From a virus: a stretch of DNA of 14,368 nucleotides. Shown here in pieces: positions 3,956 to 3,998 of this stretch. The notes beneath the pieces were generated by a model, which made no database searches, was not told where the DNA came from, and worked only from the letters and a program-made list of their open reading frames with translations. Made by a program: the position numbers and the translations under genes. The stretch lies in the UHGV virus genome UHGV-0068104; one strand, given 5' to 3'. Each line of letters starts with the position of its first letter. Within the stretch, counting starts at the first letter, position 1.

Positions 3956-3998
3956 TTGATGACCGACAGGGTGGCATTGTTAGAATAAGACTTATTCT
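3956..3998 (+). promoter_or_regulatory. Candidate sigma70 promoter with operator-like 17-bp palindrome for the downstream lipoprotein gene
   Basis: -35-like TTGATG 3956-3961, 19-bp spacer, -10-like TAGAAT 3981-3986; perfect palindrome AGAATAAG-A-CTTATTCT at 3982-3998 overlapping the -10 and the likely transcription start, about 15 bp upstream of ATG 4013. Confidence 0.35.

Follow-up and report, generated by a model that had tools for sequence, protein, structure and literature searches.

Morons are known from lambdoid phages, with bor and lom of lambda and the morons of HK97 as examples, and are reportedly the subject of the review 'The moron comes of age'. Such a moron is an extra cassette that lies between conserved late-region genes and is missing in close relatives, with a G+C content below that of its flanks and promoter-like signals of its own, and it codes for a small envelope protein. 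The locus described here, which consists of a gene for a TonB-like lipoprotein and its upstream region in an Escherichia coli prophage, has the same traits, and by analogy its product would likely be useful in the lysogen. Unlike the classical lambdoid morons, it has no intrinsic terminator after the gene, in such a way that transcription would enter the convergent gene ynfO.

For the promoter, the closest described class is that of the extended -10 (TGn) sigma-70 promoters, such as deoP1, in which a TG at -15/-14 accompanies a -10 hexamer with A at -11 and T at -7, and in which the -35 is weak or badly spaced. The same arrangement is found at this locus, where the extended -10 has the sequence that we take to be the -10 region of deoP1, TGTTAGAAT. 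A perfect palindrome overlaps this -10, and here the described counterparts are the operators placed over the -10 and +1 positions, namely the Fur boxes at tonB and iron-uptake promoters and the Arc and Mnt operators of P22 immI. The dyad of this locus spans about -11 to +6, the same occlusion geometry. Unlike those operators, it goes with no cognate protein that we could find, its match to Fur is at background level, no auxiliary or second site accompanies it, and it is not kept in all alleles of the same gene.

The window, that is, the whole stretch of 14,368 nt that was analysed (UHGV virus genome UHGV-0068104), represents the late part of a lambdoid prophage from E. coli, of the JLK-2012 / Stx1a-converting type; its identity is 98-99% with the two Escherichia phages Lys8385Vzw and JLK-2012, with several Stx1a phages and with numerous STEC chromosomes. 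The features needed below are the following:

1383-2600: holin, endolysin and Rz genes
2802-3323: gene of a KilA-N protein
3863-3871, plus strand: left junction repeat AACCGGACG at the insertion point of the cassette, from comparison with the empty site of L002
3872-4466, plus strand: moron cassette, 595 bp in length, made up of a regulatory region, the TonB_C lipoprotein gene and a non-coding 3' tail; missing from L002
3909-3932, plus strand: second conserved non-coding island GATTTGTGATTTAAGTCGGATAAT, identical in lineages A1-A3, with one substitution in C and partly kept in B
3956-3961, plus strand: -35-like hexamer TTGATG (4/6 of TTGACA), kept in A1, A2, A3 and C and lost in B
3962-3980, plus strand: spacer of 19 nt
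3978-3986, plus strand: extended -10 TGTTAGAAT, with TG at 3978-3979 (-15/-14) and the hexamer TAGAAT at 3981-3986, the sole TGnTAnAAT in the window
3982-3998, no strand: perfect 17-bp palindrome AGAATAAG-A-CTTATTCT, candidate operator at about -11 to +6, present once in the window
3993-3994, plus strand: predicted transcription start, 7-8 nt 3' of the -10 hexamer, from standard sigma-70 geometry only
4019-4345, plus strand: TonB C-terminal-domain lipoprotein gene, 108 aa (Pfam TonB_C, E = 1.3e-14; RefSeq: TonB family protein), called the TonB-like gene below
4467-4475, plus strand: right junction repeat AACCGAACG, part of the backbone, from comparison with the empty site of L002
4477-4677, minus strand: YlcI/YnfO (DUF3950) gene, backbone, convergent with the moron (Pfam DUF3950, E = 4e-19)

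The gene order 3' of YlcI/YnfO is HNH endonuclease, small and large terminase, capsid and the remaining head genes. Two other sequences of this part of the window may be recorded. At 5176-5303, in the interval from the HNH gene to that of the small terminase, the motif CAGTTAACAT(G/T) is clustered in direct and inverted orientation, and the cluster, which includes the perfect palindrome CAGTTAACATGTTAACTG, probably corresponds to cos or terminase-binding sites. Directly 3' of the major capsid gene, a perfect G+C-rich inverted repeat, ACGGGAGGCG-NN-CGCCTCCCGT (9611-9632), looks like a terminator or an RNA stem.

The cassette and its insertion slot

The limits of the cassette were defined with the help of an empty site, that of E. 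coli Ecol_542 (L002), which has one AACCGAACG and in which window positions 3690-3871 and 4467-4900 are contiguous with a 9-nt overlap; as the 9-nt junction is common to both, the cassette bounds are 3872 and 4466. At the same junction, an O26 strain (L003) holds a gene for a 46-residue hydrophobic peptide instead, and the EDL933 prophages CP-933U and CP-933O hold a PerC-family gene. The slot between the Rz/lysis gene and ylcI/ynfO, with edges AACCGRACG, is a cargo hot-spot whose contents vary by prophage, from none to the TonB-like gene, the 46-aa peptide gene or the PerC-family regulator. The G+C content is 36-39% at 3900-4100, the 5' end of the cassette, compared with 54-59% in the flanks at 3700-3900 and 4450-4600. 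The first-pass annotation had called the gene a moron, and the empty site, the alternative cargo at the same junction and the low G+C content bear this out.

The element at 3956-3998 belongs to the moron too, since it sits within this AT-rich cassette of 595 bp, which has no counterpart in related prophages; promoter and palindrome are both inside it. On the plus strand, a terminator scan of 4346-4800 found no intrinsic terminator 3' of the TonB-like gene, and the folds downstream of the gene were unremarkable (z of -0.25 to -0.8). The early region that goes with the cassette differs among prophages: that of JLK-2012 is lambda-like, and those of 86-24 and of CP-933R in EDL933 are Rac-like.

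The probable promoter region of the TonB-like gene

TTGATG, a 19-bp spacer, TAGAAT and a perfect 17-bp palindrome overlapping the -10 had been described upstream of the TonB-like gene, and all of them were confirmed where the first-pass annotation had placed them, the palindrome at 3982-3998. The TG at 3978-3979 had been overlooked, and with it the -10 becomes an extended one, TGnTAGAAT, located 33 nt upstream of the ATG; the second base of the hexamer is A and the sixth is T. The pattern TGnTAnAAT occurs once on both strands of the 14-kb window, with 1.1 occurrences expected by chance. A consensus scan chose ATGACC-16-TAGAAT, with the TG flagged. The conserved TTGATG and TAGAAT are still best read as an autonomous promoter, as had been proposed, of the sigma-70 class, and this is better called an extended -10 promoter than a -35 with a 19-bp spacer.

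The conservation of the region was studied in five upstream lineages that we recovered: A1, which comprises the window and close relatives, A2 (L088, 88% protein identity), A3 (L416, 85%), C (L418, 71%) and B (around 70%). Among 38 distinct A-type haplotypes, which were selected by protein similarity, the segment 3975-3991 (CATTGTTAGAATAAGAC) is invariant and TTGATG has a single variant, and in the adjacent spacer (3962-3974) 10 out of 13 positions vary. TTGATG and the -10 are kept in four lineages (A1, A2, A3 and C) that have diverged by around 10-30%, while the spacer sequence changes and its length is 19, 19, 17 and 19 bp, respectively. In A3, a 2-nt deletion produces the optimal spacer of 17 bp, and the TG is lost as well (CATTTTTAGAAT); in C, the spacer of 19 bp is found together with a better -10, TAAAAT. 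Allele B has lost TTGATG and kept ATTGTYAGAATAAGAC. As far as can be judged from the alignments, this trade-off among promoter elements fits stabilising selection on promoter strength, and it is the main reason why we accept a working promoter. The segment 3956-3998 is thus probably the promoter of the TonB-like gene, with an extended -10 and a weak -35.

The second conserved island, at 3909-3932, contains a CRP-like sequence, TGTGA-N6-TCGGA, centred at 3920.5, which corresponds to -72.5 from the predicted +1. At this position TGTAA-N6-TCAGA is found in allele B, also a match of 8/10. The CRP-like site is only suggestive, since the window contains six matches of at least 8/10 to the CRP half-sites.

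The palindrome as a candidate operator

The palindrome shares five bases with the -10 hexamer, all but its first, and ends 21 nt upstream of the start codon. A perfect palindrome of 8+1+8 nt was found in 22.5% of dinucleotide shuffles of the window, and when gaps of 0-3 nt were allowed the shuffles gave 0.97 palindromes versus 4 hits in the real window, which represent three distinct sites because two of the four hits are one cos-proximal dyad. With these shuffle frequencies, the palindrome alone is not beyond chance; what is notable is its position on the sole extended -10 of the window and near a start codon.

Its variation was followed through the lineages. The palindrome is perfect in 77 of the 83 A-type loci; the other six have uncompensated changes in the right arm (3992 T>G, 3997 C>T) beside an intact gene, and in one haplotype the change 3999 T>A lengthens the dyad to 21 bp. 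It is also perfect in the three diverged A-type lineages A1, A2 and A3. The surroundings in A3 are around 16% diverged, with substitutions that flank the dyad immediately on both sides, and the identical run at 3980-4001 has the dyad at its centre; in A2 it lies in an identical block of 43 nt, and other identical runs in the cassette are at least as long. Lineage C keeps six of the eight symmetric pairs about the same centre and shows two double changes (G:C to A:T and A:T to G:C), a level of covariation matched by only 30 out of 500 shuffles; both double changes are transitions, for which complementarity is kept automatically. In A1, variation of the right arm is no different from background, with 2 of 7 positions variable in the 38 haplotypes, and conservation ends at 3991. 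The left arm is accounted for by the -10 alone. Allele B, phage 21 included, keeps ATTGTCAGAATAAGAC, and a 14-nt deletion has taken away its right arm; since B also lacks the -35, it may be a decayed promoter and not proof that the dyad is dispensable. A related sequence in the same cassette, AGGGTAAG-T-CTTGTTCC (4398-4414), matches the palindrome at 13 of 16 positions and lies 416 bp downstream; we considered it as a second, weaker copy and discarded it, as it neither is conserved nor co-varies in A2, A3, B and C. The first-pass annotation had read the arrangement as a repressor-occluded promoter. The geometry, at -11 to +6, is right, and the status of the palindrome as operator is ambiguous in view of the missing right arm in B, the uncompensated right-arm variants and the outcome of the searches below, which gave neither a second site nor a known regulator that fits.

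A regulator for the dyad was sought among phage and host proteins. No second site with up to 3 mismatches was found elsewhere in the whole 57-kb JLK-2012 prophage, a complete prophage that bears the cassette, and no related dyad with up to 5 mismatches in its cI-cro interval. An operator of CI or Cro was ruled out because JLK-2012 has no related site and the cassette is found in prophages with unrelated early regions. The dyad was also compared with 24 regulator consensus sequences, among which there was no convincing match; only Fur (13/19) and Zur (15/23) scored above local shuffles. The Fur box was discarded, because matches as good as its 13/19 are found at background frequency and allele B lacks one, and none of the 23 non-Fur sequences (Zur, ArgR, DeoR, CRP, FNR, LexA, RcsB, SlyA, Lrp, NagC and others) was convincing. 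In the case of DeoR, the left half of the palindrome, TGTTAGAA, is what we take to be an exact DeoR operator half-site, with 10/16 matches overall; it is not a DeoR operator, because the partner of this half-site is shifted by 9 bp.

The exact 17-mer was found elsewhere in IMG/VR only in unrelated low-G+C phages, apparently inside coding sequence, and in metagenomes in about 100 unrelated contexts. L093, L098 and around 65 other IMG/VR loci from metagenome 3300045988, low-G+C phages on contigs of about 58 kb, have this 17-mer unchanged as part of GGAAAGAATAAGACTTATTCTTTTTC, which is a longer hairpin with a T-run after it. The agreement with these phages is sequence coincidence and not homology.

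The neighbouring protein YlcI/YnfO, called ribbon-helix-helix (RHH)-like, had been suggested as a possible regulator besides a host-encoded one. Its predicted model has an N-terminal extended segment and two helices (pLDDT 63), and the folds that match it best all belong to RHH proteins (Arc, NikR and ParD), at a non-significant E of around 3, so that an RHH-like fold is weakly plausible from model and fold matches. Nothing ties YlcI/YnfO to the dyad. The palindrome-bearing alleles adjoin ynfO, and the allele-B phages examined do not have it; ynfO belongs to the backbone and also occurs at empty sites and beside other cargos, and inspection of the sequence around it revealed no similar dyad.

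Several explanations other than a promoter with an operator have to be weighed. The hexamers could be fortuitous in AT-rich DNA, the gene being expressed only via the late transcript in lytic growth. The weak -35 (4/6), the non-optimal spacer of 19 bp, a number of promoter-like sites at shuffle level in the consensus scan (3 in the window, 2.5 in shuffles), the position of the gene on the late strand and the lack of a terminator after it are in line with this. Nevertheless, the island of conservation falls exactly over the extended -10, TTGATG is kept in four lineages with compensating changes of spacer and TG, and the cassette architecture and low G+C content are typical of morons, and we regard the lack of an autonomous promoter as unlikely. 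It is quite possible, if on the doubtful side, that the promoter is real and the palindrome has no function of its own, with the left arm being the -10 and the discriminator and the right arm a drifting local inverted copy, produced for example by template switching; the moron promoter would then be constitutive or governed only by nucleoid proteins. Such a by-product would explain the end of conservation at 3991 and the background-rate variation of the right arm, as well as the uncompensated variants with an intact gene, the presence of ATTGTYAGAATAAGAC without right arm in allele B, a palindrome within chance for the size of the window, and the lack of a partner site and of a regulator match. 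It is harder to reconcile with the perfect dyad of A3, bounded immediately on either side by substitutions in a 16%-diverged context, and with the six symmetric pairs and two double changes of C, and the argument from allele B is weakened if B, without its -35, is a decayed promoter. 

The dyad could also act as an RNA stem-loop (a stem of 7 base pairs with a loop of 3 nt, ahead of a U-rich sequence) in transcripts coming from upstream, such as the late transcript, with a role as processing or stability element or as weak attenuator. The stem is rich in AU and weak (-4.9 kcal/mol, z = 0.22, with 102 of 200 shuffles folding equally well), the terminator scan does not call it, no Rfam family matches, and a start at around 3993 would leave the left arm out of the moron's own mRNA. 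Since the RNA hairpin is negligible, a role at the DNA level is favoured. The RNA role is kept as a minor rival, of low probability, because nearly all variants stay paired under RNA rules: 95.8% of cells pair, 3997 C>T and the T:A to T:G change of C become G-U wobbles, and the sole broken pair in C is the innermost one, impossible around a 1-nt loop; the U-rich sequence follows in both A and C. Two transitions would, however, be wobble-compatible by chance about once in four. Regulation by iron through Fur, as for the host tonB, is most unlikely. The position over -10/+1 is typical of Fur repression, and at 3984-4002 there is a match of 13/19 to GATAATGATAATCATTATC, with three NATAAG hexamers in the order forward-forward-x-reverse, a score reached in 1 of 500 local shuffles; since 24 motifs were tested, this figure becomes about 0.05 after correction, matches of at least 13/19 occur 9 times in the 14-kb window and are thus background, each hexamer has a G in place of the T of Fur, and the promoter of allele B has no match of at least 12/19. 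A phage-encoded regulator, either the CI/Cro repressor of the prophage or YlcI/YnfO, is very unlikely as well. Dyads of 17 bp are typical of lambdoid operators, YnfO has the strand-helix-helix pattern and the RHH fold matches described above, and it is next to palindrome alleles and missing from the allele-B phages examined. Set against this are the lack of a related sequence in the cI/cro region or in the rest of the 57-kb JLK-2012 prophage, the presence of the cassette in prophages with different early regions, the backbone status of ynfO at empty sites and with other cargos, the lack of a similar dyad around it, and the poor statistics of the fold matches and the model (E of around 3, pLDDT 63).

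We return to a promoter with an operator. According to this proposal, which as a whole we put forward tentatively, 3956-3998 would be the core promoter of a self-contained moron cassette (3872-4466) which, in a lambdoid prophage of E. coli, was inserted with the lysis genes on one side and the ylcI/ynfO-HNH-terminase block on the other. The sigma-70 RNA polymerase would use TGnTAGAAT (3978-3986), aided by the weak TTGATG over an over-long spacer of 19 bp, and would start near 3993, giving a leader of about 25 nt before the TonB_C lipoprotein gene; with its own promoter, the gene could be expressed apart from the Q-dependent late transcript. The dyad could be a functional operator, a role that we assign to it with reserve, at which a dimeric DNA-binding protein would block open-complex formation, this protein being more likely host-encoded than phage-encoded, and the phage-21-type allele would have lost operator control through its 14-nt deletion. 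The most attractive version, in which a dedicated small regulator, above all the adjacent DUF3950 protein YlcI/YnfO with its RHH-like features, would have the dyad as its operator, has little probability. Taken together, this is an ordinary moron promoter with a candidate operator, of a well-known kind.

The TonB-like lipoprotein in E. coli prophages

The product of the TonB-like gene has a lipoprotein signal with the lipobox LVMGC, and a weak Shine-Dalgarno sequence (GGGAA/GGAA) is located just 5' of the start at 4019. Around 8% of complete E. coli genomes (414-416 of 5,426) have allele A, and allele B, around 70% identical to A, occurs in the classic phage 21, in ev017, in Perceval and in many prophages. 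A search of the literature on the gene or its promoter found nothing. In EDL933 (NZ_CP008957.1), the copy is EDL933_RS11180, at 2,148,918-2,149,244 on the minus strand within CP-933R, with its palindrome at around 2,149,265-2,149,281. This strain is the subject of a Cappable-seq study (PMC10469882).

Other observations on the gene are the following. A Klebsiella phage has a homologue with 40% identity in the same post-lysis slot. Inside the gene, on the minus strand at 4146-4173, there is a near-consensus promoter-like sequence, TTCACA-16-TATAAT (11/12), which is antisense and points towards the palindrome; its TATAAT is also present in allele B, and its -35 has a common variant, 4173 A>G. The 418-bp sequence NZ_SJEX01000172.1 (L005), filed as the actinobacterium Modestobacter excelsi, contains the allele-B gene of an E. 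coli phage with the region upstream of it, which almost certainly comes from assembly contamination.

The palindrome itself adds little until a protein that binds it is known, and the natural right-arm variants, together with the deletion of allele B, provide a ready-made allelic series. If YlcI/YnfO did regulate the dyad, a backbone gene of the packaging region would control from the prophage a lipoprotein acting as TonB-box decoy, which would for example block the entry of TonB-dependent phages or colicins, and the phage-21 allele would be a natural operator deletion. The interest lies mostly in the target of the promoter, the unexplored TonB-like lipoprotein, which could be such a decoy or a superinfection exclusion factor. 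Should the promoter be active in lysogens, around 8% of the complete E. coli genomes, among them O157, O103, O26, O111 and O145 STEC and EPEC E2348/69, with a second allele in phage 21, would express from a prophage a periplasm-facing lipoprotein with a TonB C-terminal domain. Such a lipoprotein could alter TonB-dependent uptake and the sensitivity to colicins or phages, and a regulated promoter, if true, would show the conditions under which it is expressed.
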